Origin: Patescibacteria group bacterium
Lineage (GTDB): Bacteria > Patescibacteriota > Patescibacteriia > Magasanikbacterales > UBA922
Length of the DNA stretch: 64,000 nucleotides
Reading direction: 5' to 3'
Assembly: GCA_018823045.1 (NCBI GenBank)
Contig: JAHJIX010000016.1
Span: 2,961 to 66,960 of the forward strand
Part shown: in pieces, positions 5,570-52,718 of the stretch
Layout of the letters: the number at the start of each line of letters is the position of its first letter
How positions within the stretch are numbered: the stretch's first letter is position 1
Made by a program: the position numbers and the translations under genes
The notes under the pieces: model-generated
What the model was told of the DNA's origin: nothing
The model's database searches: none
The model's input: the letters and a program-made list of their open reading frames with translations, nothing else

Positions 5570-5929
5570 ATGGTGAAGATGGGTAAGTACGGTCAGCCCA
5601 TCATCATCGCCGAGCCTGACTTGGCCTTCGAGGCGCCCAGCTGCCTCAACTACGTCGACGCCAAGGGTGAGGAGGCCACGCCGAGCGAGAAGATCGCGGG
5701 CATTATCTGTAAGGATGGGCCGCGCTTCAGCCTCAGCAATGCCAAGAAGAAGGGAATCTCCGTTAGCGTCAACGATGAGGGTTTCATCCAGATCGACAAC
5801 GAGACTTGGTGGATCTCGACCTTGTTCTGCAAGGACAAGAACCGCATCGTGGGCTACGACGCCTACCTCGTTCGCATGAAGCCGAAGCAGGTCCTCATCC
5901 TCGAGCTCGGGGACCTCGACCTCTTCTAA
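5570..5929 (+). CDS. Hypothetical 119-aa protein encoded by a strikingly GC-rich, G/C-ending-codon ORF (foreign insertion)
   Basis: Long uninterrupted ORF; third codon positions almost all G/C; no Shine-Dalgarno; flanked by typical AT-rich native DNA; no motif recognised. Confidence 0.5.
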   Translation: MVKMGKYGQPIIIAEPDLAFEAPSCLNYVDAKGEEATPSEKIAGIICKDGPRFSLSNAKKKGISVSVNDEGFIQIDNETWWISTLFCKDKNRIVGYDAYLVRMKPKQVLILELGDLDLF

Positions 5930-6067
5930 GGAGCATTAACAACACATACCCAAGTCCCTGCACACCGTGTAAACTTGGGGGAAATAAAAAGGTTCTTATC
6001 GTTGATAGGGGCTTTTTTTGTTTCATTCTCTTGCATTTTTAGCCATTTTTTAGTAGGATATAGGTAT

Positions 6068-6928
6068 ATGGATGTATCAATTATTACCGTTACGTGGAAC
6101 AATGCAGAGCAAATTGCTCGTCAACTGAAAAGCGCTCAAGAAGGAGTTGCTACTCTTAAGATTGAGCAACATGTGATTGATAATGGATCAAAGGATGATA
6201 CTGTTGATATTGTAAAAAAACAATTCCCAGAGGTGAATCTTATCTCAAATAAAGTAGGTAAAGGATTTGGCGGGGCAAATATGCAAGGGGTAGAGGCTTC
6301 ATCTAATGATGTGCGCTATTATTTGTTTCTCAATCCAGATATGAAGGTGGAAAAGGGAAGTATAGATACTTTTGTTGCGTGGATGGATAAGCACCCTGAT
6401 GTTGGCATTGCAAGCCCCAAATTGTTAGATGAGCATGGGAAATTAAATATGGATGCAACGCCTCGTCGTTTTCCTCGTGTATGGGAGCAAGTCGCATTGA
6501 TTTTAAAAGTACCTCATATCTTTCCGTCTATTATGAATAAGTACATGATGACTGATATTGATGCAGATACAGAGCAAGATGTGGATTCTGTCCGCGGGTC
6601 ATTTATGCTCATGCGAAAAGAATTTGTTGATAAGCTTGGTTTTGCATTTGATCCACGATATTTTATTTGGTATGAAGATGTAGATATTTGTCGAGAAGCA
6701 AATCGATTAGGATACCGAGTGGTACATACGCCAATTATTTCAGCGGTAGACTATATTGGACAAAGTTTTAAAAAACGAGAAACATTGTGGAAGCAAAAGA
6801 ATTTTACAAAAAGCATGTTGCAGTATTTCCAAAAATGGGAGCCATGGTATAAGTGGATGTGGATTGCACTGTTTCGACCAGTGGGTATTGCGCTTGCGTG
6901 GTTGAATGATAAAGTGCATAAAAAATAA
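6068..6928 (+). CDS. Family-2 glycosyltransferase
   Basis: MDVSIITVTWNN start and GSKDD / NPDM D-x-D-type motifs. The annotated upstream Met at 5975 is probably not used, because the conserved GT2 N-terminus begins at 6068. Confidence 0.75.
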   Translation: MDVSIITVTWNNAEQIARQLKSAQEGVATLKIEQHVIDNGSKDDTVDIVKKQFPEVNLISNKVGKGFGGANMQGVEASSNDVRYYLFLNPDMKVEKGSIDTFVAWMDKHPDVGIASPKLLDEHGKLNMDATPRRFPRVWEQVALILKVPHIFPSIMNKYMMTDIDADTEQDVDSVRGSFMLMRKEFVDKLGFAFDPRYFIWYEDVDICREANRLGYRVVHTPIISAVDYIGQSFKKRETLWKQKNFTKSMLQYFQKWEPWYKWMWIALFRPVGIALAWLNDKVHKK

Positions 6929-7069: not shown

Positions 7070-8122
7070 ATGAAAAAATTAAGCGTACATTTAGTAACAT
7101 GGAATGGAGCAAAGTATGTGCCATACTTGTTTGCGTCGCTTAAAAAACAAACATATACAGATTGGAAGCTCTATATTTGGGATAATGATTCAAAAGATGG
7201 CATGGCAGAAGCAATGGAAGAAGAATTGAAAGATGTTTCTTTTGAGTATGAACTCATTAAGCATACAGATAATATTGGTTTTGCAGGAGGACACAATGCA
7301 CTATACAAACAAACAGAGAGCAAATATTTTTTGCCACTTAATCAAGACATGTATTTAACGCCCGATTGTTTTGAACAGATGGTTGCATGGATGGATGAGC
7401 ATGAAGATGTGGCAGTGATTTCTCCACGTTTGATGCGTTGGGATTTTCAAAAGATGCTTGCCGGCAATGACCGTGCTGCATTTACTGGGCAAATTGATGC
7501 GCTCGGGTTAAAAGTATTTCGCAATCGTCGCATGATTGAGCAATATACTCAATATCAATGGGCTGATATTCAGAAACAATTTTTATCAGAGAGTATTCCC
7601 GTGTTTGGGGTTTCTGGTGCGTTTCCATTATATCGGCGGACGGCTATTGATGATATTGCATTTGACGATGGGACATTTTTTGATGAGTCATATCATTCAT
7701 ATAAAGAAGATGTCGATCTTGCATATCGTTTGCGGAGTGCAGGTCATGAGTCATATGTGTTACTTGATGTTGTCGCGTATCATGATCGTAGTGGTGCGGG
7801 TCCTAAAAAATTAAATGATGTTTCGGCACTCAAAAATAAAAAAGAACATTCTTCTTGGGTGAAGTATCATAGTTACAAAAATCATTTAATGACTTTATAT
7901 AAAAATGAATATTGGCAAAATACTTGGCTAGATTTTCCGTGGATTAAATGGTATGAATTAAAGAAGTTTTTTTATTTTCTTTTATTTGATCGAACGGTAT
8001 TAAAGGGATTAGGGGAGTTTATTCGTTTATATTCTGAATTGCGAAAAAAGAAAATATTGATTAAACAAAAACGGCGTGTGTCTTATAAAGAATTGAGAAA
8101 ATGGTGGGGGAAAAATAACTAA
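7070..8122 (+). CDS. Family-2 glycosyltransferase
   Basis: VHLVTWNGAKYV ... WDNDSKDG (DxD); GT2 architecture. Confidence 0.75.
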   Translation: MKKLSVHLVTWNGAKYVPYLFASLKKQTYTDWKLYIWDNDSKDGMAEAMEEELKDVSFEYELIKHTDNIGFAGGHNALYKQTESKYFLPLNQDMYLTPDCFEQMVAWMDEHEDVAVISPRLMRWDFQKMLAGNDRAAFTGQIDALGLKVFRNRRMIEQYTQYQWADIQKQFLSESIPVFGVSGAFPLYRRTAIDDIAFDDGTFFDESYHSYKEDVDLAYRLRSAGHESYVLLDVVAYHDRSGAGPKKLNDVSALKNKKEHSSWVKYHSYKNHLMTLYKNEYWQNTWLDFPWIKWYELKKFFYFLLFDRTVLKGLGEFIRLYSELRKKKILIKQKRRVSYKELRKWWGKNN

Positions 8123-29621: not shown

Positions 29622-30485
29622 TTACTTACGGGGGGAGGGAGGGGAGAGGTCGTGGTGGGCTCGTTGGAGCCAGCCCATGATTATGACTTTTGTCATTTCC
29701 TTTCGGTATATTCTGCGTGTCATCCACGCGTAATATTCACCAAACGGTCCGGCGTTAATGCCAGAGTTTGGAAAAAACCGAATGCATTTCGATTGAGTGA
29801 AGGAGTTCATACACTGTGATTTGTCATTGTAGACTTTTTCCTTGGTGTACTCTTCACACAAATCTGATGCAAGACTGTAGCAGTCTCCTTTTTGGAGTTG
29901 CAGAAGAAATGCGAGTTCCGCTTCCTCGTCATATTTCTTCGTCGCCTCCATGAGGTTTTGAAGAAGCTCGAGGATTTCAGCGCGCTTCTTTGGGTAAATG
30001 GTGAAAGAGGCTTTTGCCATCGTAATGGCATACTTGTAGCTCTCTTCGATTGTTTTTTTGTCGCTATAGATATCTTTTGACATCTTTTCGTTGGTGCTCA
30101 AGAAGAGCCATGCATTGATGTCGATAATCGATAATTTTTCTATTGCAACGCCGTCCCATGTGCTATGATAGATAGGAGTACGGTGCTTCAAAGAAGAAGG
30201 AATTGTAATCTTTTGAGTAGCTTTTTTGAGGTGTTTTTTTTGAAGTTCTTGGGACTTATATTCAAGTCTTAAGACCTCTATATCAAAAGATGATTTGTCC
30301 TTTTTAGCTCTCTCGAGGGTTTCAATTTGCTCCTCGATCTTGCTCAGTTCCTTCTGAGCCTCTGTTTGTGTTGTTGTCGGGGCGTTGTCGCCCGCAGTAA
30401 CTTGCACCTCGGCGTGGGCCGCCGTGATGCTGAGGTGGAAGGAAGGCAGCAAGAATAATGCTACCAAGAGAATGATTCGCATCAT
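29622..30485 (-). CDS. Secreted hypothetical protein (signal peptide; Cys-containing C-terminal domain)
   Basis: GGAG-preceded ATG ATG start (MMRIILLVALFLLPSFHLSITAAHA); the annotated upstream start is a non-ATG codon. The 3' end runs into a GC-rich G-tract region. Confidence 0.5.
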   Translation of the reverse strand: MMRIILLVALFLLPSFHLSITAAHAEVQVTAGDNAPTTTQTEAQKELSKIEEQIETLERAKKDKSSFDIEVLRLEYKSQELQKKHLKKATQKITIPSSLKHRTPIYHSTWDGVAIEKLSIIDINAWLFLSTNEKMSKDIYSDKKTIEESYKYAITMAKASFTIYPKKRAEILELLQNLMEATKKYDEEAELAFLLQLQKGDCYSLASDLCEEYTKEKVYNDKSQCMNSFTQSKCIRFFPNSGINAGPFGEYYAWMTRRIYRKEMTKVIIMGWLQRAHHDLSPPSPRK

Positions 30486-30732
30486 TTTCTCCGCTGTAAG
30501 TAAATTGTCCAAAGGACATGCGCCACACCTTGTGTGACGGGTATTGTTCGACCAGAATGGAAGATCTATACCACTTAGTTTTACCTAAAACTAGATAAAA
30601 TTAACTAATATAGATGATATAACGGCGTACCTTAGCATATTTTGAATGTTTTGTCAAGTCGAGTGTAGTGGAGGATAAAAAAAGAAAGCAGGGGAGTGCT
30701 TCTTTTTTTGCTAGAATAGGTTGTTGTTGCAA

Positions 30733-46230: not shown

Positions 46231-46478
46231 AGATATTTAAATTGTACTTAATATAGAGCAAAAAGTCCAGTCTATTATACTATGGATTAAGAACGAAAAC
46301 AATTTTTTGGACTGAAGTTGTCTTTATTTTTAGTGGAATATATGACTATATTGATTGATAATTTGCTTATATGTTTTGTTGTGGATAAGCAAATATACAT
46401 TAAGACAAAGGTGGATATTTGTGATATTTAATGGTATGATATAAATATACAATTTCTATTTTTTTATTACATAGATGT

Positions 46479-47160
46479 ATGACTATAAAAAGTAAATTTA
46501 TTATTAGTTTTTTGCTGATTTTATTTACACTTGGGTTTAGTGGTATATCAATTTTAGAGGAATAGAAAGTATCACTGAAAATTTGAATAGTATTAATGAA
46601 GAAACTGTACCAGTGATGATGGCTTTGCACGAGTTAACATTTTTTCTTTATATGTGGTTTCTGCAACAATAGAATTACTTATTATTGAAGATCATATCGA
46701 GGCTATTGAATATGAGCAAGAAGAAGTAGAAGAAGCATAAAGAGGAATTTAATGAGGGGTTATTAACATATGAACATTTAGGGAATACGTATTTCCTAGG
46801 AGAAAATGATCATAAAAATAATATTAAAAAGGAGTGGGAGATTCTTGTTGATATTGCTGATAATATGTTTATTGCAAAAACAAATTGCAAAATTTAGTAA
46901 AGCAATAGAAGTAATTTCTGCTGGAAAATTTAATATAAAAACAGATATTACTTCATAAAGATGAGTTTGGAGTGTTAGCAAAAGCATTTGATAACATGAT
47001 AGAAAAATTAAAAGAGTCACTCAAAAGTCTTGAAGAGCGTGGTGTATTGATTAAAGAACGATTAGATGAAATTGAATCAAAAAATAAAAAATTAGAAAGT
47101 TTTAATAAAATAATGGTTGAATTAAAAGAGGAACTAAAAGCTTTAAAAAAGAAAAAATAG
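46479..47160 (+). pseudogene. Decayed HAMP-domain sensor gene (MCP/histidine-kinase-like) broken by frameshifts and stops
   Basis: Fragments in different frames: MTIKSKFIISFLLILFTLGFSGISILEE* (TM1); ...RFLLILLIICLLQKQIAKFSKAIEVISAGKFNIKTDITS* (TM2 into HAMP); then KDEFGVLAKAFDNMIEKLKESLKSLEE in the +1 frame (HAMP DE.G.LA.AFN.M signature). Confidence 0.6.
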
Positions 47161-47168
47161 TGTTGTGT

Positions 47169-48095
47169 ATGATGTATAAAGAACTTAAACAATTTGGTGC
47201 GGTAAAAGTAAATGTATCTTTGGCAAAATATCTAACGATGAAGGTAGGAGGCATTGCACAATGTATTGTGATTGTTGAGGAATTGGATAAGTTAATAGAT
47301 TTATTAACTTATCTTGAGGGTACTGATATACAACCCCTTTTAATAGGTGGAGGAAGTAATATGATTCTTTCAGATGATGAATTTGAAGGAGTGGCTATTA
47401 TAGTAAAAGTAGCAAACTGTGAGATTGAAGGGGACCGTGTTATTGCAGACGCTGGGTGCTCGACAGTAGAAGTTGCTCGCAAAAGTTTTGCAGCAGGTCT
47501 CACTGGTTTTGAGTGGGGGGTTGGCGTTCCTGGGACAATTGGAGGAGCTGTTCGTGGAAATGCTGGAGCTATGGGGGGAGATATGAGCCAATCGATTGAA
47601 AAAGTTTTGGTGTATCAAGATGGAGAAACAAAAGAATTATCAGGAAAAGATTGTGCATTTGCATATCGAGATAGCCTTTTTAAACATGACTCAAGTATTA
47701 TTTTGCGCGTCTGGTTACAGTTGCAAAAAACTGAGGCAAAAGATGGTATGAAAAAAGCGCTTGAGCATATTCAATATAGAAATAAAACACAACCACAGGG
47801 GTATGCATCAAGTGGCTGTATTTTTAAAAATATATCTATTGAAGGTGAAAAAGAGGGTGTTCCAAAAGAGTTTATAGAAAAAGGAATTATTCCTGCCGGA
47901 TGGTTGATTGAGCAAGTGGGTTTAAAAGGAAAGCAAATTGGGAATGCGCAAATAAGTGAAAAACATGGAAATTTTATTGTAAATGTTGGCGGTGCTTGTG
48001 CACAAGATATTTTTGATTTAATTGATGAAGCCAAAGAAAAAGTGTTTGAACAGTTTGGGTTTAAGTTAGAAGAAGAAATTCGTATTGTTCGTTGA
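47169..48095 (+). CDS. murB: UDP-N-acetylenolpyruvoylglucosamine reductase
   Basis: FAD-binding LLIGGGSNMI, MurB fold, C-terminal CIFKN; start taken at the ATG at 47169. Confidence 0.8.
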   Translation: MMYKELKQFGAVKVNVSLAKYLTMKVGGIAQCIVIVEELDKLIDLLTYLEGTDIQPLLIGGGSNMILSDDEFEGVAIIVKVANCEIEGDRVIADAGCSTVEVARKSFAAGLTGFEWGVGVPGTIGGAVRGNAGAMGGDMSQSIEKVLVYQDGETKELSGKDCAFAYRDSLFKHDSSIILRVWLQLQKTEAKDGMKKALEHIQYRNKTQPQGYASSGCIFKNISIEGEKEGVPKEFIEKGIIPAGWLIEQVGLKGKQIGNAQISEKHGNFIVNVGGACAQDIFDLIDEAKEKVFEQFGFKLEEEIRIVR

Positions 48096-48159: not shown

Positions 48160-48504
48160 ATGACGATTAATATCAAGGCGTCAAACATCGACATGACTGA
48201 TGCGCTTAAACAATATGCATTTGATAAAGCTGATTCATTAAAAAAATATTTTAAAAATATTCAAAAAATTGATGTAGATTTTGGCATGGATAGTCACCAT
48301 CATCAAAAAGGAAAAATATTTCAAGCACAGATGAATGTGTTTGTCCCTGGAAAAATATTATCTGTTTCAAAAAAAGCAGAAGATCTCTATAAAGCAATTG
48401 ATAAAGTAAAAGATCATTTGAAAGTAGAGTTAGATGAATTAAAAGGAAAAATGCATCAAAAAGATCGTAAGCATATTCGTGAATCAAAAGGATATCAAGA
48501 GTAA
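48160..48504 (+). CDS. hpf: Ribosome hibernation promoting factor (RaiA/YfiA family)
   Basis: MTINIKASNIDMTDALKQYAFDKADSLKKYF N-terminus typical of HPF. Confidence 0.8.
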   Translation: MTINIKASNIDMTDALKQYAFDKADSLKKYFKNIQKIDVDFGMDSHHHQKGKIFQAQMNVFVPGKILSVSKKAEDLYKAIDKVKDHLKVELDELKGKMHQKDRKHIRESKGYQE

Positions 48505-48517
48505 CATTGAAAAAGAA

Positions 48518-48552
48518 AAAGACTCATAGTATATGCCATGAGTCTTTTTTAT
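48518..48552 (+). terminator. Rho-independent terminator (agactcat / atgagtct + T-run)
   Basis: Perfect 8-bp stem, 10-nt loop, T6. Confidence 0.7.
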
Positions 48553-48569
48553 TTGAAAAGTTGTAAGCC

Positions 48570-48735
48570 CTCCGGGGAGGGCTTGGTGGAACAGCAGAGG
48601 TTGTTCTCCTACTCGCGTGGCGTTCCGTGAGGATGCCTGCCGTGGTTTCCACGTGAGGGATTACGGTGATGATGAGGTGGGGAAGATGGAGGTTTGCCGT
48701 CCTTTGCGTGTGGCATATGTCTCCTTTATATACTA
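48570..48735. other. GC-rich (about 55-60%), hairpin-dense non-coding stretch; candidate structured RNA or leader of the downstream island
   Basis: aagccctccggggagggctt 8-bp hairpin; cgtgg-ttt-ccacg hairpin; direct repeat ccgtgagg / cacgtgagg; no ORF of 60 aa or more. Confidence 0.35.
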
Positions 48736-48803
48736 TGCCGTTGACCTGACTATATGGTAGTTGTATTTAGCTTACTTGTCAACAAAAATGAGGGCGTGGT
48801 ACT

Positions 48804-48832
48804 TGACAAATTAGTCATATTAATCTAGTATG
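48804..48832 (+). promoter_or_regulatory. Sigma70-like promoter TTGACA-17 bp-TAGTAT upstream of the island gene
   Basis: TTGACA at 48804-48809, 17-nt spacer, TAGTAT at 48827-48832; overlaps an inverted repeat ttgtcaa ... ttgacaa. Confidence 0.45.
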
Positions 48833-48954
48833 TTTTAACCCATAACAAAAGTAGACCATATCGAACCTATGAGGAATATAGGTGGTCTACACCTCTCGTG
48901 ATAGAGAGGGATTTCGAAGAGAGTCATAGGAGGACTCAAAACGTGACAGGAAAC

Positions 48955-49758
48955 ATGGAAAAAATATGGAGAGCTTTTTTAACAGTTCTCACAGATATGG
49001 GTGGTTATGCCACTCGGCAGGAAATGGAAAGTTTCTTTAACTTGAGGAAGAAAGGAGAGTTAGATAGACACTTGGGGCAGTGCAGGAAAGCGTATTATAA
49101 TCTGTATGCGAAAATCTTTCCTGTATATCGTTGTACCTTCTTTGATGAGGGACAGCGGCATCGAGATGGGTATCGCTTGGGCAATGAGGTTGACACCTTC
49201 ATTAATTCAGGTGTTTTACCAGGCCCTTCCCAGAGGTTTATGGAGATGCTTCGGCTGCGTCAGGCTGTCGGAATTTATTCTGTTCTCGATACTTTCAGTT
49301 TGAAGAGAACAATGGCCGTGGGAGGAATTATTGATCCAATCGTTCGTTTAGCACGAGAGGTAGGAGTGATCCCATTCCAGAAAGATCGGATAGTTCTTCC
49401 TAGTGGGGAATTGTGTACGGTCTATCTTTGGCCGGGAAGTGAGCTTCCTGATCCAAAGTGGATTAGTGGCCCACAAGTTGGGCGGTTGGCTAAGCCTATG
49501 CCATCTAAATCTCAACAAGAAAAACGGCCTATTACCCCCCCTGTGCGTCGTCCTCAAACAAGTACTTTGATCAATGAAATTTTGAGGATGCTGAAGAATT
49601 ATGGAACACTTACTATGACAGATGCTCAGCAAATTACAGGATTTACTATAGAAGAAATAAAAGGACTTCTGCAAATGGTACAAAGTCCTGAGGATGGCTA
49701 TTTCCGTTGGGCTGGCCCAGTGGAAAAACAATATTTGCGTTGGATTGGTCCTCGCTGA
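48955..49758 (+). CDS. Hypothetical protein on a GC-elevated island (possible winged-helix regions at both ends)
   Basis: AGGA-preceded ATG (MEKIWRAF...); roughly 47-48% GC against a roughly 36% background; no family recognised. Confidence 0.45.
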   Translation: MEKIWRAFLTVLTDMGGYATRQEMESFFNLRKKGELDRHLGQCRKAYYNLYAKIFPVYRCTFFDEGQRHRDGYRLGNEVDTFINSGVLPGPSQRFMEMLRLRQAVGIYSVLDTFSLKRTMAVGGIIDPIVRLAREVGVIPFQKDRIVLPSGELCTVYLWPGSELPDPKWISGPQVGRLAKPMPSKSQQEKRPITPPVRRPQTSTLINEILRMLKNYGTLTMTDAQQITGFTIEEIKGLLQMVQSPEDGYFRWAGPVEKQYLRWIGPR

Positions 49759-49913
49759 AGTCTCTATAAAACGAGTAATTCGTAAATAGGGCAGAGTGTG
49801 AGGAGATCATGTAGGGCGGTGCTTCTTTAGCAGGAAGTAACCGCTTTTTTTATACACCTATATCGGTAGACAGATAGAGGGAAAAATGCTACACTACCTC
49901 CGTTAATTCTCTA

Positions 49914-52718
49914 GTGTTAAAGACTATGAATGTACTTAAAAAAACATACGAAAAAGTGTTTGGAAACTTTAATATCCAAACTATGAAAGAAATACAGCCC
50001 ATTGTAGAGAAAATTAATAGTTTTGAGTCGGCATATGCGGCATTATCAGATAAAGAACTGCAAGGAAAGACTGCAGAATTTAAGGCTGCCTTAAAAGAAG
50101 GTAAAACACTTGATGATATTTTGCCAGAAGCATTTGCAACAGTAAGAGAAGTAGGAAAGCGTACCTTGGGTATGCGTCATTATGATGTACAAATGGTGGG
50201 TGGAATAGCGCTTCATCGTGGCATGATTGCAGAGATGAGAACTGGTGAAGGAAAAACGCTTGTAGCAACTCTTCCGACATATTTAAATGCACTTGAAGGG
50301 AAAGGGGTTCATGTGATTACGGTAAATGATTATTTGGCAAAACGTGATGCTGTATGGATGGGGCAAGTATATGATTTTTTAGGAATTTCACTTGGTATTG
50401 TGCAAGGGCAACGAGTGAGTTTTATCTATGATGCACAAGGTGATGATGTGACTGATGCTGAACAATTAAAAGAACATAGTGCTATTGATAGTCTTCGAGA
50501 TAAAGATGGTAGTTTTAAAGTAGAGTCATCTTATTTGCGTGGGTGTACGCGCCAAGAAGCATATTTGTGTGACATTACCTACGGGACAAATAATGAATTT
50601 GGTTTTGATTATTTGCGTGATAACATGGTGCAAGATCAAAAAGACATGGTAATGCGTGCTGGGAGTGAAATGCATTATGCGGTAATTGATGAAATTGATT
50701 CTATTTTAATTGATGAAGCAAGAACGCCGCTTATTATTTCAGCGCAAGCAGGAGAAGCCACTGATCAATATTATACCTTTGCAAAATTGGTTCGTAATTT
50801 AAATGAAGAAACAGATTATAATGTTGATGAAAAATTACGAAGTGCGACGCTTACTGAAGAGGGAATTACTGTGTTAGAAAAAGCGCTTGGCATTGAAAAT
50901 ATTTATGCAGAAGGTGGTATTCGGGTTATTCATCATATTGAACAAGCGCTTCGGTCAGAAGTATTGTTTACGCGAGATAAAGATTATGTGCTTGATGGTG
51001 AAGAAGTGGTTATTATTGATGAATTTACTGGAAGAAAAATGCCAGGTCGTCGCTATTCAGAGGGTTTGCATCAAGCAATTGAAGCAAAAGAAGGGGTAGC
51101 CATTAAGCAAGAGAGTCGTACATTGGCAACAATTACGTTTCAAAATTTGTTTCGCATGTATACAAAATTGTCTGGAATGACCGGAACGGCTGTAACAGAA
51201 GAAGAAGAATTTCGCAGTATTTATGGTTTAGATGTGTTAGTGATTCCGACAAACAAACCAGATGCAAGAAAAGATTATCCCGATCGTATTTATAAAACAG
51301 AAAAAGGAAAATATAAAGCAATTGTTGAAAAGATTAAGGAATGTCGAGAAAAAAATCAGCCAATTTTGGTTGGTACAATTTCTGTTGAAAAAAATGAAGA
51401 ATTAGGATTATTTTTACAAGCACAAGGTATTCCACATGAAATATTGAATGCAAAAAATCATGAACGTGAAGGAGAAATTGTTGCAAAGGCTGGTATGCCA
51501 GGAGCGGTAACCCTTGCTACAAATATGGCTGGGCGTGGGGTGGATATTAAATTAGGTGGTCCAGATGCCTCAGAAGAAGATCGTCATCGTGTACTTGCGT
51601 CAGGCGGACTATTTGTTTTAGGAACAGAAAGACATGAATCTCGTCGTATTGATAATCAGTTACGTGGGCGTTCTGCTCGGCAAGGTGATCCTGGTGAAAC
51701 GCAATTCTTTGTATCAACGCATGATGATTTGATGCGTATTTTTGCGGGAGATAGATTGCGTTCAGTCATGGATCGATTGAAAGTGCCAGAGGATATGCCA
51801 ATTGAACAAGGTATGATTAGTAAAATGCTTGAAAATGCACAAAAAAAAGTAGAATCTCATCATTATGATATTCGAAAGCATTTATTAGAATATGATGATA
51901 TTTTAAATAAGCAACGACAAGTTATTTATACTAAACGTCGTGAAATTTTAGATATTGCTCATGCACAAGAAGCGGGAGATGAAATAAAAAAGAGCTTGCG
52001 TGATGTGCTATTTGAATTTATTGAGCAAGAAATTGAGTTTATTATTTCATTTCACACGAATGGGCAAATACTTGAAGGGGAAGAAGGGCATAGTGATGAT
52101 TGGAATACGAAAGAGATCTTTGAGACCATGAATACTATTTTTCCTTGTGATCAAGCAGATAAAAAAGCATTAAAAGATTTAGTAGCAAAACGAGGGCAAG
52201 CAAAGGTAGAAGAAGTGGTTGTCCGTGATGAAATTGTGCAATATTTTTTAACAAAAGCACAAGTTGCTTATGACGCACTTGAAGTACAAGTGGCTGAAAA
52301 AGTACAGGATGGAACACAAGCAAAGCACATGATGGCTGTTATTGAAAAACAAGTGATTTTGCGTGCAATTGATTCTTTATGGGTTGATCATCTCGTGCAA
52401 ATGACTTATTTGCGTACAGGGATTGGTTTGCAAGGTTATGGACAACGTGATCCATTAATTGAGTATAAAAAAGAATCATTTGGCTTATTTACTCATTTGC
52501 AATCATCTATTCAAAAAGAGATTGTCTATGCGTTTTTTAAGGTGGGCGTTGGTTTACAATTAGCACCAACCGTTATGGCAGATGACAAATTAGTTTTTAC
52601 TGGGGCAAAAAAGACCTCAGACAGTGCTGCACTTGCTCGTGGAGGAGCAGGAGTTTCGACAAAACAAAAAATGAGTAAAAAAGACCGTCGTCGCTTAAAT
52701 CGGCAACAAAAAGGATAA
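49914..52718 (+). CDS. secA: Preprotein translocase ATPase SecA
   Basis: GEGKTLVATLP Walker A, DEIDSILIDEARTPLIIS, helical scaffold and C-terminal basic tail; the start may be the ATG at 49926. Confidence 0.9.
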   Translation: MLKTMNVLKKTYEKVFGNFNIQTMKEIQPIVEKINSFESAYAALSDKELQGKTAEFKAALKEGKTLDDILPEAFATVREVGKRTLGMRHYDVQMVGGIALHRGMIAEMRTGEGKTLVATLPTYLNALEGKGVHVITVNDYLAKRDAVWMGQVYDFLGISLGIVQGQRVSFIYDAQGDDVTDAEQLKEHSAIDSLRDKDGSFKVESSYLRGCTRQEAYLCDITYGTNNEFGFDYLRDNMVQDQKDMVMRAGSEMHYAVIDEIDSILIDEARTPLIISAQAGEATDQYYTFAKLVRNLNEETDYNVDEKLRSATLTEEGITVLEKALGIENIYAEGGIRVIHHIEQALRSEVLFTRDKDYVLDGEEVVIIDEFTGRKMPGRRYSEGLHQAIEAKEGVAIKQESRTLATITFQNLFRMYTKLSGMTGTAVTEEEEFRSIYGLDVLVIPTNKPDARKDYPDRIYKTEKGKYKAIVEKIKECREKNQPILVGTISVEKNEELGLFLQAQGIPHEILNAKNHEREGEIVAKAGMPGAVTLATNMAGRGVDIKLGGPDASEEDRHRVLASGGLFVLGTERHESRRIDNQLRGRSARQGDPGETQFFVSTHDDLMRIFAGDRLRSVMDRLKVPEDMPIEQGMISKMLENAQKKVESHHYDIRKHLLEYDDILNKQRQVIYTKRREILDIAHAQEAGDEIKKSLRDVLFEFIEQEIEFIISFHTNGQILEGEEGHSDDWNTKEIFETMNTIFPCDQADKKALKDLVAKRGQAKVEEVVVRDEIVQYFLTKAQVAYDALEVQVAEKVQDGTQAKHMMAVIEKQVILRAIDSLWVDHLVQMTYLRTGIGLQGYGQRDPLIEYKKESFGLFTHLQSSIQKEIVYAFFKVGVGLQLAPTVMADDKLVFTGAKKTSDSAALARGGAGVSTKQKMSKKDRRRLNRQQKG

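Follow-up and report, generated by a model that had tools for sequence, protein, structure and literature searches.

Accessory DNA between hpf and secA in a Magasanikbacteria-like bacterium carries a rare gene for a predicted multi-winged-helix DNA binder

What is roughly 1.3 kb of foreign-looking DNA doing between hpf and secA in a tiny-genome, Magasanikbacteria-like (CPR) bacterium? An earlier note on this DNA had described a GC-elevated island at this position whose composition jumps right past the hpf terminator, and the sliding-window GC and tetranucleotide checks that it proposed bear out both statements. Within the window (the whole 64-kb stretch of DNA that was analysed), positions 48565–49860 have the top GC content among all segments of 1.3 kb (44.6% against a mean of 36.1%, z 2.7), and the tetranucleotide deviation of 48565–49864 is the largest in the stretch (z 3.6, matched by 0 of 627 windows). 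In 200-bp windows, GC climbs from 0.27–0.34 to 0.49–0.50 directly past the hpf terminator (48516–48549), a 14-bp stem that forms the left edge of the island and that should be able to act both ways because A-runs and T-runs flank it. On the other side, homology to the region upstream of secA in a sister genome restarts at about 49866, which marks the right edge, and a promoter-site scan placed the native secA promoter-like site at 49867–49895 (+ strand). The gene content of the island is a single ORF.

This ORF had been placed at 48955–49758 with a length of 268 aa. The reading frame is real, but its start lies more likely at GTG 48943 than at ATG 48955, giving 271 codons on the + strand (48943–49758). 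The upstream start is favoured because AGGAGG sits 9 nt 5' of it and because the single full-length homologue has its ATG at the aligned position, preceded 10 codons earlier by an in-frame TAA; the database start codon of the gene is thus corrected. Overall GC of the gene is 44.2%, the highest of 56 ORFs but short of the 47–48% that had been estimated, and its GC3 is 0.38 (mean 0.245, z 2.2). Identity to the homologue by codon position is 0.55/0.67/0.31, a pattern that indicates purifying selection on the protein and establishes, at the level of sequence, that the gene is real and selectively maintained.

A first word-index protein search had found the protein itself alone, and it was an exhaustive search that revealed relatives. 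Among about 15 billion proteins there is one other full-length member, with 40–43% amino-acid identity over its full length; two further contigs (L009 and L010) are 100% identical, stem from an identical strain and add nothing. When genome, viral and metagenome contigs were scanned with a protein pattern, only the known Magasanikbacteria locus came up, and no relatives occurred in 50,697 phage records, 72,556 plasmid records or the IMG/VR viral contigs. The homologue belongs to a sister Magasanikbacteria genome and lies on the same MAG contig as the closest SecA (80–81% identity), at a different locus (tRNA-Thr/bipA) where its cassette abuts tRNA-Thr and no integrase is nearby. It is likewise a compositional outlier, with a GC3 of 0.40 against 0.20 in its neighbours (z 4.5).

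Such a distribution could be that of a Magasanikbacteria gene that is old and lineage-specific, evolves quickly, was translocated once, and owes its higher GC to amino-acid content and selection on the mRNA. Its presence in both sister lineages and, at full length, nowhere else fits this history, as do the lack of detectable mobility genes at the locus and the degree of promoter and leader identity (74%), which is that of orthologous intergenic DNA in the same genome pair. However, identity at third codon positions is near random (0.31, compared with 0.54–0.59 for secA, secD and secF of the same two genomes), so that the coding sequences coalesce far deeper than their hosts. Moreover, GC3 is 0.38–0.40 in both copies against 0.20–0.25 in the host, a difference that long residence should have erased, and the copies occupy different loci, each in a variable neighbourhood. 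We consider purely vertical descent improbable, and infer instead that a gene pool of slightly higher GC supplied the two known copies independently to their hosts, or at least to the loci where they now sit. The segment is thus probably horizontally acquired, accessory DNA with a regulator-type protein: the earlier suggestion of an acquired regulator finds support in the outlying composition, the variability of the slot, and a homologue that sits elsewhere and is itself a GC3 outlier.

That the hpf–secA gap is a variable slot is evident from relatives of the host. In one (L012) it holds two unrelated minus-strand ORFs of about 48% GC, in another (L013) a minus-strand ORF of about 60% GC for a 307-aa cupin-like protein, and on a JGI contig it is empty, with a gap of 484 bp. 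A 265-aa plus-strand gene in L013, considered as a hidden homologue, was unrelated on testing and is probably an antisense miscall of the minus-strand GC-rich gene. As at integration hot spots between core genes, the flanks are conserved (murB-hpf ... secA-secD-secF) and the cargo is GC-deviant or lacking; unlike typical hot spots, the slot has no integrase, tRNA or att repeat, and its inserts are of single-gene size. The flanks of the island itself contain no integrase, transposase, att-type repeat or target duplication, and no convincing flanking direct repeats, so that its description as a mobile-element remnant is unproven; nor does it have the recombinase and the border tRNA or att repeats of an integrative island or prophage remnant. 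An integron gene cassette (a promoterless ORF followed by an attC hairpin) was also rejected, given that the gene has its own promoter, that the conserved hairpins lie 5' of the ORF, and that RYYYAAC/GTTRRRY core sites do not flank these hairpins.

The earlier note had recognised no family for the protein, and curated collections agree. The 271-aa protein matched no Pfam family and no PADLOC defence family at E ≤ 1, nor any NCBIfam family, and PHROGs yielded one weak, uninformative match only (Ren-like, E 0.044). No curated HTH family (Pfam MarR, HTH_DeoR, HTH_39 and others; NCBIfam) reached its gathering score, and even the distant relatives produced only sub-threshold or fragmentary matches to HTH_DeoR and HTH_39. 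Winged-helix-like segments had nonetheless been proposed at the N- and C-termini. The kind of fold was right, but the confident domain is the central one, which had not been flagged; the C-terminal assignment is probable and the N-terminal one possible.

Based on AF2 models and profile searches, the central domain (aa 86–172; 49198–49458, + strand) is confidently predicted to be a canonical winged helix with H-S-H-H-S-S topology. Modelled with a 46-sequence alignment, it reached a pLDDT of 91.7 and a pTM of 0.82, with predicted elements H12–24, E26–28, H29–35, H41–58, E64–69 and E75–80. Its top Foldseek matches were all winged-helix DNA binders (MarR/PefR, TFIIE/TFE, Stf76, F-112 and phage HTH proteins), and the top 50 fold matches in PDB and BFVD were mostly wHTH/HTH DNA-binding proteins; the Foldseek E-values are weak (at least 0.006) and single out no one winged-helix family. 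The C-terminal domain (aa ~203–271; 49549–49755, + strand) is probably a diverged winged helix: single-sequence AF2 gave the H-S-H-H-S-S topology at pLDDT 60–69, and hhalign aligned the domain to the central-domain profile with a probability of 79% over 28 columns. A single-sequence model of the full-length protein (pLDDT 41) is informative for this domain only. For the N-terminal domain (aa 1–85; 48943–49197, + strand) the hhalign probability is 16%, though the alignment is co-linear over 63 columns, and the homologue has a weak profile match, making a third winged helix possible. Judging from its fold class, the protein would be a transcription-factor-like or nucleoid-associated DNA binder.

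The best structural matches (MarR/PefR-type proteins, ArsR/CadC and MecI) share the H1-S1-H2-H3-S2-S3 topology of the central domain, but with Foldseek E-values of at least 0.04, TM-scores of 0.4–0.57, and scores below every Pfam HTH threshold; the MarR-type dimerisation helix is absent here, and the chain would contain three tandem modules as opposed to one dimerising module. By sequence, the central domain has homologues in uncharacterised proteins of high-GC bacteria (P0003–P0025; the one with a named source, P0006, comes from a Bradymonadia MAG), which carry the domain two to three times; the match (E 1e-7 to 6e-12) is specifically to their C-terminal 'type B' repeat (...RFME.LR...KAVGGIIEPI.R.A...G...PF......GE..W.WPG). 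These proteins differ in having a conserved N-terminal motif of about 30 aa, Ala/Pro-rich linkers and an Arg-rich tail. They are encoded by stand-alone chromosomal genes in genomes of about 60–70% GC, and the upstream regions of these Bradymonadia-like homologues share no leader. The only PDB sequence-profile match to the central domain, F-112 of SSV1 (2vqc), spans the whole domain at a marginal E of 0.018. Both F-112 and Stf76 of pSSVx (2mlg) were among the fold matches, and the gene here is accessory as theirs are; however, they are single-domain proteins of archaeal viruses or plasmids, and no viral relative of the protein in the window was found.

How the gene might be expressed is suggested by the sequences on either side of it. 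The promoter that had been recognised at a TTGTCAA/TTGACAA inverted repeat (arms 19 nt apart) is indeed present (TTGACA-17-TAGTAT, sigma70-like; 48803–48831, + strand; 10/12 consensus match), as is the strong terminator between the gene and secA, an intrinsic one consisting of a hairpin (GGCGGUGCUUC...GAAGUAACCGC) and a U7 run (about 49815–49851, + strand). The transcription start site used here was inferred from the promoter consensus alone. Homology to the sister locus (L001) starts at TACTTGACAAA in the promoter and extends through a 5' leader of about 105 nt and 42% GC (48838–48942, + strand). Over 122 nt, promoter and leader are 74% identical between the two loci, in contrast to 31% at the third codon positions of the adjacent coding sequence, and both elements are thus conserved across a pair in which synonymous sites are saturated. 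Ordinary intergenic DNA of the two genomes is also 72–78% identical; had recombination swapped the coding sequence only, the identity of the leader would require no special selection.

The leader is predicted to form three hairpins: HP1 (48851–48890), with a 7-nt 5' bulge; HP2 (48892–48909, CCUCUC/GAGAGG); and, beyond a conserved single strand (UUCGAAGAG), HP3 (48921–48937), whose loop contains GGAG of the Shine-Dalgarno sequence. All three were found in both leaders with differing loops, and in both the Shine-Dalgarno sequence is predicted to be unpaired. The leader has a minimum free energy of −31.8 kcal/mol (z −3.2), whereas the z of its homologue is only −1.5. Across about 24 pairs there are four one-sided changes of the G-U type, one two-sided change and no broken pair, but because only two independent sequences exist, this conservation of stems is anecdotal. 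No Rfam family matched the leader, a search of the 64-kb stretch and related loci with its covariance model turned up no further copy, and its DNA pattern had 0 hits in metagenomes. Three viral matches to the pattern were rejected by the covariance model, and an incomplete occurrence of the leader motif at 46687, in what by eye is an apparent decayed AT-rich pseudogene, was judged to be due to chance.

Conservation of the leader might also reflect its role as DNA, with nested inverted repeats (GTAGACC...GGTCTAC, CCTAT...ATAGG and TTCGAA) acting as operators just 3' of the transcription start, at which the winged-helix protein would repress its own gene, and with RNA structure being incidental. 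Inverted repeats are the typical targets of winged-helix regulators, self-repression from sites at +10 to +60 is frequent, and the nested repeats are kept in both loci. But all four of the one-sided stem changes are tolerated as G-U, such that dyad symmetry is lost while RNA pairing is kept, and the pairing of HP3 survives a U-A to C-G swap; the variability of loops but not of stems also speaks against operators. A role as DNA and one as RNA could nonetheless coexist. We regard operators as rather unlikely, if the most credible of the alternatives considered here. The G-U-compatible changes, the one compensatory change, and the position of the Shine-Dalgarno sequence in the HP3 loop suggest that the leader acts as RNA, in which case it would probably set translation initiation or mRNA stability and might plausibly be under feedback by the encoded protein. 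Autoregulatory RBS-hairpin leaders (e.g., those of ribosomal proteins) are likewise structured, conserved 5' UTRs with the Shine-Dalgarno sequence inside the last hairpin; here, by comparison, that sequence is in a loop and unsequestered, no Rfam family applies, and binding by the protein is conjecture.

Upstream of the promoter lies a GC-rich stretch (48565–48735; 55–58% GC), which the earlier note had taken for a hairpin-dense segment of about 58% GC and a possible cis-regulatory leader or small RNA. High GC is confirmed, but positions 48570–48735 average 55.4%, and 57.8% is attained only in the best 166-bp window (48559–48724). The named hairpins exist, as a perfect 9-bp GC-rich stem detected by an inverted-repeat scan (AAGCCCTCC-GG-GGAGGGCTT, 48565–48584) and as CGTGG-TTT-CCACG, but folding does not exceed that expected from composition (z −1.3 on the + strand and −1.95 on the − strand, relative to dinucleotide shuffles). 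A direct repeat reported as ccgtgagg is, in fact, a 7-mer, CGTGAGG, that occurs twice. The Rfam scan that had been recommended matched no family to the stretch: covariance models had 0 matches at gathering score across the whole 64 kb, and at E ≤ 10 positions 48400–50000 gave terminator-like noise only. Neither blastn nor tblastx detected similarity to any of the retrieved loci, phages, plasmids or viral contigs; codon periodicity (p 0.65) and tandem repeats are absent; and none of the small ORFs in the stretch occurs in the 15-billion-protein collection. At the homologous locus the stretch is missing and the equivalent position is occupied by tRNA-Thr and its terminator; a tRNA/tmRNA scan of the 64-kb stretch found none, so the GC-rich stretch differs from its positional counterpart. 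Its position 5' of the promoter means that it cannot be the leader of this gene, and it is most simply a lineage-specific foreign residue outside the conserved cassette.

The GC-rich stretch could instead be a unit of its own, giving rise to a minus-strand transcript of about 235 nt that either is an sRNA or encodes a His/Pro-rich peptide of 35 aa. Transcription would be driven by a divergent sigma70-like site (TTGACA-17-TACCAT; 48782–48754, − strand; 10/12), whose −35 element is the left arm of the TTGTCAA/TTGACAA repeat, and would stop at the 48584–48565 hairpin together with the hpf terminator, which can work both ways; the palindromic −35 elements could place it under joint control with the winged-helix gene. 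A speculative 35-codon ORF (MPHAKDGKPPSSPPHHHRNPSRGNHGRHPHGTPRE; 48609–48716, − strand) has AAGGAG 4 nt 5' of its ATG and a stop 25 nt before the perfect hairpin, which could be the terminator stem of this unit and is followed by a minus-strand terminator-like site, and minus-strand folding is slightly above that of shuffles. However, shuffles yield a comparable number of promoter-like sites (6.4 ± 2.2, against 9 here), the Pro/His/Arg-rich composition of the peptide is that expected from any C-rich strand, and no gene caller predicts the ORF. Taken with the lack of periodicity, of Rfam matches, of similarity in any collection searched, and of the stretch itself from the sole homologous locus, these results make an independent unit doubtful.

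The predicted multi-winged-helix architecture and the size (~270 aa) of the encoded protein are reminiscent of iteron Rep proteins, and the segment could in principle be left over from a plasmid or phage module, with the gene as a tandem-winged-helix replication initiator or repressor and the GC-rich stretch as an origin or iteron relic. The inverted repeat that overlaps the promoter, the two copies of CGTGAGG, and the Ren-like PHROG match would accord with such an origin, which we nevertheless deem very unlikely: neither a Pfam Rep nor any other Pfam family was matched at E ≤ 1, which leaves no Rep_3-type match, tandem repeats such as iterons (three or more direct repeats of 17–22 bp next to the gene) are absent, relatives are missing from the phage, plasmid and IMG/VR collections, and the distant relatives are stand-alone chromosomal genes.

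With somewhat more confidence than doubt, we therefore read the locus as a variable hpf–secA slot occupied, in this strain, by about 1.3 kb of accessory DNA, the core of which is a self-contained cassette for a rare, unannotated three-winged-helix DNA binder. The cassette would be monocistronic, comprising a sigma70-type promoter, a structured leader of about 105 nt, the 271-codon ORF and an intrinsic terminator, and its product would be a DNA-binding protein composed of three winged-helix-type modules; the GC-rich 170 bp 5' of the promoter would not be part of the conserved unit. A far bolder version, which we offer as a long shot, would have a minimal self-regulating cassette move between Magasanikbacteria and lodge in slots between strongly expressed core genes, with no recognisable recombinase involved, its leader representing a new class of RNA bound by its own protein, and, in this strain, the same protein using the palindromic −35 elements to control a divergent gene for an sRNA or a 35-aa peptide.

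On present evidence, the gene is genuine but of an ordinary kind: an acquired, regulator-type gene whose family has yet to be described. Genomes of CPR/Patescibacteria are tiny and encode few regulators, and their accessory genes are mostly unannotated; here, an orphan family receives its first fold-level assignment, as a predicted multi-winged-helix DNA binder, together with a candidate conserved 5' leader that may be an autoregulatory RNA. The hpf–secA gap emerges as a place where foreign genes of higher GC have repeatedly landed in Magasanikbacteria and, without overturning current understanding, provides a tidy case of small-scale gene flux in CPR bacteria.

The densely packed window (about 36% GC) holds proteins that match NCBI records of 'Patescibacteria group bacterium', and its closest SecA relatives are those of Candidatus Magasanikbacteria. 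Downstream of murB (47160-48095), a short hpf (48160-48504; Ribosomal_S30AE, E 5e-17) ends in a bidirectional terminator (48516-48549), directly past which GC content steps from 0.27-0.34 to 0.49-0.50. The segment 48565-49860, which separates hpf from secA (49926-52718; secD, then secF next), has the highest GC content of any 1.3-kb window in the 64 kb (44.6% vs 36.1 ± 3.1%) and the greatest tetranucleotide deviation (z 3.6; matched by 0 of 627 windows), making the compositional islet described in the earlier note genuine. Its gene (48943-49758, plus strand) has the highest GC among the 56 ORFs of the window, with a GC3 of 0.38 vs 0.245 ± 0.06. Elsewhere, a 296-aa ORF (29622-30512, minus strand) is the strongest GC3 outlier of the 56 (0.52 vs a mean of 0.245) and possibly another foreign gene. 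A 119-aa ORF (MVKMGKYGQPIIIAEPDLAF...; 5571-5930, plus strand; KKG38_03020, 'hypothetical' at NCBI), immediately 3' of a terminator-like hairpin, stands out in a 36% GC genome by a GC content of about 60% and shows strong GC periodicity by codon position; its single relative (116 aa) is in a different Patescibacteria MAG, and it looks like a further recent acquisition. Upstream of murB, the very AT-rich stretch 46440-47160 (plus strand; 22-28% GC) contains stop-interrupted, broken frames resembling, by eye, a HAMP/coiled-coil signalling protein (…FSKAIEVISAGKFNIKTDITS / …GVLAKAFDNMIEKLKESLKSLEERG…); read this way, it is probably a decaying pseudogene.

The protein encoded in the islet has no match in Pfam, NCBIfam or PADLOC even at E<=1 and a single one in PHROGs (E 0.044), and a word-indexed protein search returned nothing except the protein itself. 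Relatives emerged when 1.84 billion cluster representatives were searched exhaustively with HMMER: a sole full-length homologue, P0002 (282 aa; E 1e-50, 40% identity), and about 22 further proteins sharing only residues ~86-196. P0002, like P0026, is from Ca. Magasanikbacteria SI053_bin48. Identity between gene and homologue by codon position (0.55/0.67/0.31) marks a genuine protein that is kept by purifying selection while its synonymous sites have reached saturation. As chromosomal genes that stand alone in differing contexts, the distant relatives offer no functional clue apart from putative DNA binding. The family is unannotated and very rare, with just two clusters of full length in ~15 billion proteins.

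High-GC bacteria have hypothetical proteins with two to three copies each of the central region, its named match being one Bradymonadia MAG protein. An AF2 model of the central domain, built from a 46-segment alignment, is a canonical winged helix (H-S-H-H-S-S; pLDDT 91.7, pTM 0.82). Foldseek searches of PDB and BFVD were led by winged-helix DNA binders (PefR/MarR, TFIIE/TFE, Stf76, F-112 and phage HTH regulators), at weak support (E at least 0.006, TM 0.4-0.6), and among PDB sequences the central-domain profile matched F-112 of SSV1 alone (E 0.018). The C-terminal ~70 residues also adopt H-S-H-H-S-S in a single-sequence AF2 model (pLDDT 60-69) and align to the central-domain profile with an hhalign probability of 79%, and the N-terminal ~85 residues align co-linearly and weakly (probability 16%). 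From the modeled topology, the structural matches and these alignments, we read the protein as three putative winged-helix-type modules, with confidence highest for the central, lower for the C-terminal and lowest for the N-terminal one.

The TTGACA-17-TAGTAT promoter proposed earlier is present (48803-48831) and is the region's best plus-strand match; a divergent promoter-like site on the minus strand, TTGACA-17-TACCAT (48782-48754), matches as well, and the left arm of the inverted repeat previously pointed out doubles as its -35. Past the ORF lies a terminator made of a stem and U7, at about -21 kcal/mol. The translation start had been placed at ATG 48955; however, the homologue's ATG lines up with GTG 48943, AGGAGG lies 9 nt 5' of this GTG, and an in-frame TAA stands 10 codons upstream of the homologue's ATG, so the start moves to GTG 48943 (271 aa). 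The database start, Met-19 (window 48997; NCBI protein of 253 aa), is 18 codons too short at the N-terminus; conserved residues RAFLTVLTD, together with the homologue's aligned start, back GTG 48943.

Homology of the two loci extends from exactly TACTTGACAAA (the -35) to the stop codon, between unrelated flanks, with 74% identity over the 122 nt from -35 to start codon (E 2e-17). Folding predicts the same three hairpins in both leaders (here 48838-48942), separated by a conserved UUCGAAGAG: HP1 (48851-48890, with a 7-nt 5' bulge), HP2 (48892-48909) and HP3 (48921-48937), whose loop holds the GGAG of the SD, predicted unpaired. Across ~24 stem pairs there are four one-sided changes, each to or from G-U, no disruptions, and one two-sided change (U-A to C-G, in HP3); loops and bulge differ in sequence and length. 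Changes of the G-U type preserve RNA pairing but spoil DNA dyad symmetry, by which the reading as RNA gains, and this comparison of two sequences tilts toward an RNA element rather than DNA dyads. Ordinary intergenic DNA of the same genome pair is also 72-78% identical, and if recombination replaced the CDS only, the leader's conservation would be explained without selection. The homologue's leader has a folding z of -1.5, the leader matches no Rfam family, and a search of the window and of related loci with its covariance model gave no further copy. As a new cis-regulatory RNA, the leader is a reasonable candidate with thin support. Within the AT-rich stretch upstream of murB, position 46687 has a 17/20 match to the leader motif, which looks like chance.

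It was the GC-rich stretch at 48565-48735 that the earlier note had taken for the leader or a structured RNA, a mis-assignment: because it lies upstream of the promoter, it is not the leader of the winged-helix gene, and it folds much as shuffled sequence does. Non-coding positions 48570-48735 are GC-rich as described, at 55.4%, with ~58% reached only in the best window (57.8%), and the named hairpins are present, but the folding excess of the stretch over dinucleotide shuffles is not significant (z -1.3 on the plus strand, -1.95 on the minus strand). The stretch lacks repeats and codon periodicity, has no match anywhere searched, and is missing from the homologous locus, where a tRNA with its terminator stands ahead of the -35. 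The geometry of the minus strand is suggestive of a candidate unit: the promoter-like site at 48782-48754 is followed by AAGGAG-N4-ATG at 48716, an ORF of 35 codons rich in Pro, His and Arg that runs to 48609, a 9-bp GC hairpin 25 nt further on, and the bidirectional hpf terminator. Such an alignment of elements would fit a minus-strand sRNA or micro-ORF, yet promoter-like sites show no enrichment over shuffles, the peptide composition is as expected from any C-rich strand, and no gene caller has to date predicted the ORF. This explanation is the less likely one. A lineage-specific foreign residue ranks as likelier, at roughly even odds.

The homologue's cassette sits between tRNA-Thr(GGT) and bipA, on a 72-kb MAG contig that also carries the nearest SecA (81% amino-acid identity), secA not being adjacent. 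That contig of the sister genome (L011, JABIGQ010000038.1) ends 66 bp upstream of secA, and since these 66 bp align with window 49866-49914, the island's right edge is fixed. This contig stops (L011 1-66) exactly where the variable slot would start, an assembly break that may be due to strain-variable content. Other relatives (SecA ~70% identity) keep the order murB-hpf...secA-secD-secF with varying gap content: two unrelated minus-strand ORFs of 180 and 160 aa in L012 (3784-4811; ~48% GC vs ~38% in the flanks), neither with a significant family match; a minus-strand 307-aa ORF with a weak Cupin_2 match in L013 (2850-3870; an insert of ~60% GC, the genome being low in GC); and an empty gap of 484 bp in a JGI contig. 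GC-richer cargo therefore recurs in the hpf-secA slot. For the L013 gap, the database calls a 265-aa plus-strand ORF of antisense-like sequence; the 307-aa ORF is the more plausible gene, which probably puts the call on the wrong strand.

Third-position identity in the same genome pair is 0.54-0.59 for secA/secD/secF vs 0.31 for the winged-helix gene, and GC3 is 0.38-0.40 in both copies vs 0.20-0.25 in their hosts, so the coding sequences coalesce much deeper than the hosts and are un-ameliorated. On this comparison, the two copies more probably came in separately, from an outside gene pool, than by simple vertical descent. Searches for an integrase, att-type repeats, and phage or plasmid relatives found none. 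At the homologue's locus (L001), 18 nt around the tRNA-Thr 5' end are duplicated 78 bp upstream (6085-6102 / 6163-6180; 17/18 identical), and a 20-nt AT-rich imperfect direct repeat (6306-6325 / 7285-7304; 17/20) flanks the homologous leader and ORF; these repeats may record earlier recombination or may simply be coincidental in AT-rich DNA. Overall, the earlier note was right to guess at an acquired winged-helix regulator. The object is of an ordinary kind: a lone accessory gene that has a promoter and a terminator of its own and occupies a variable slot.
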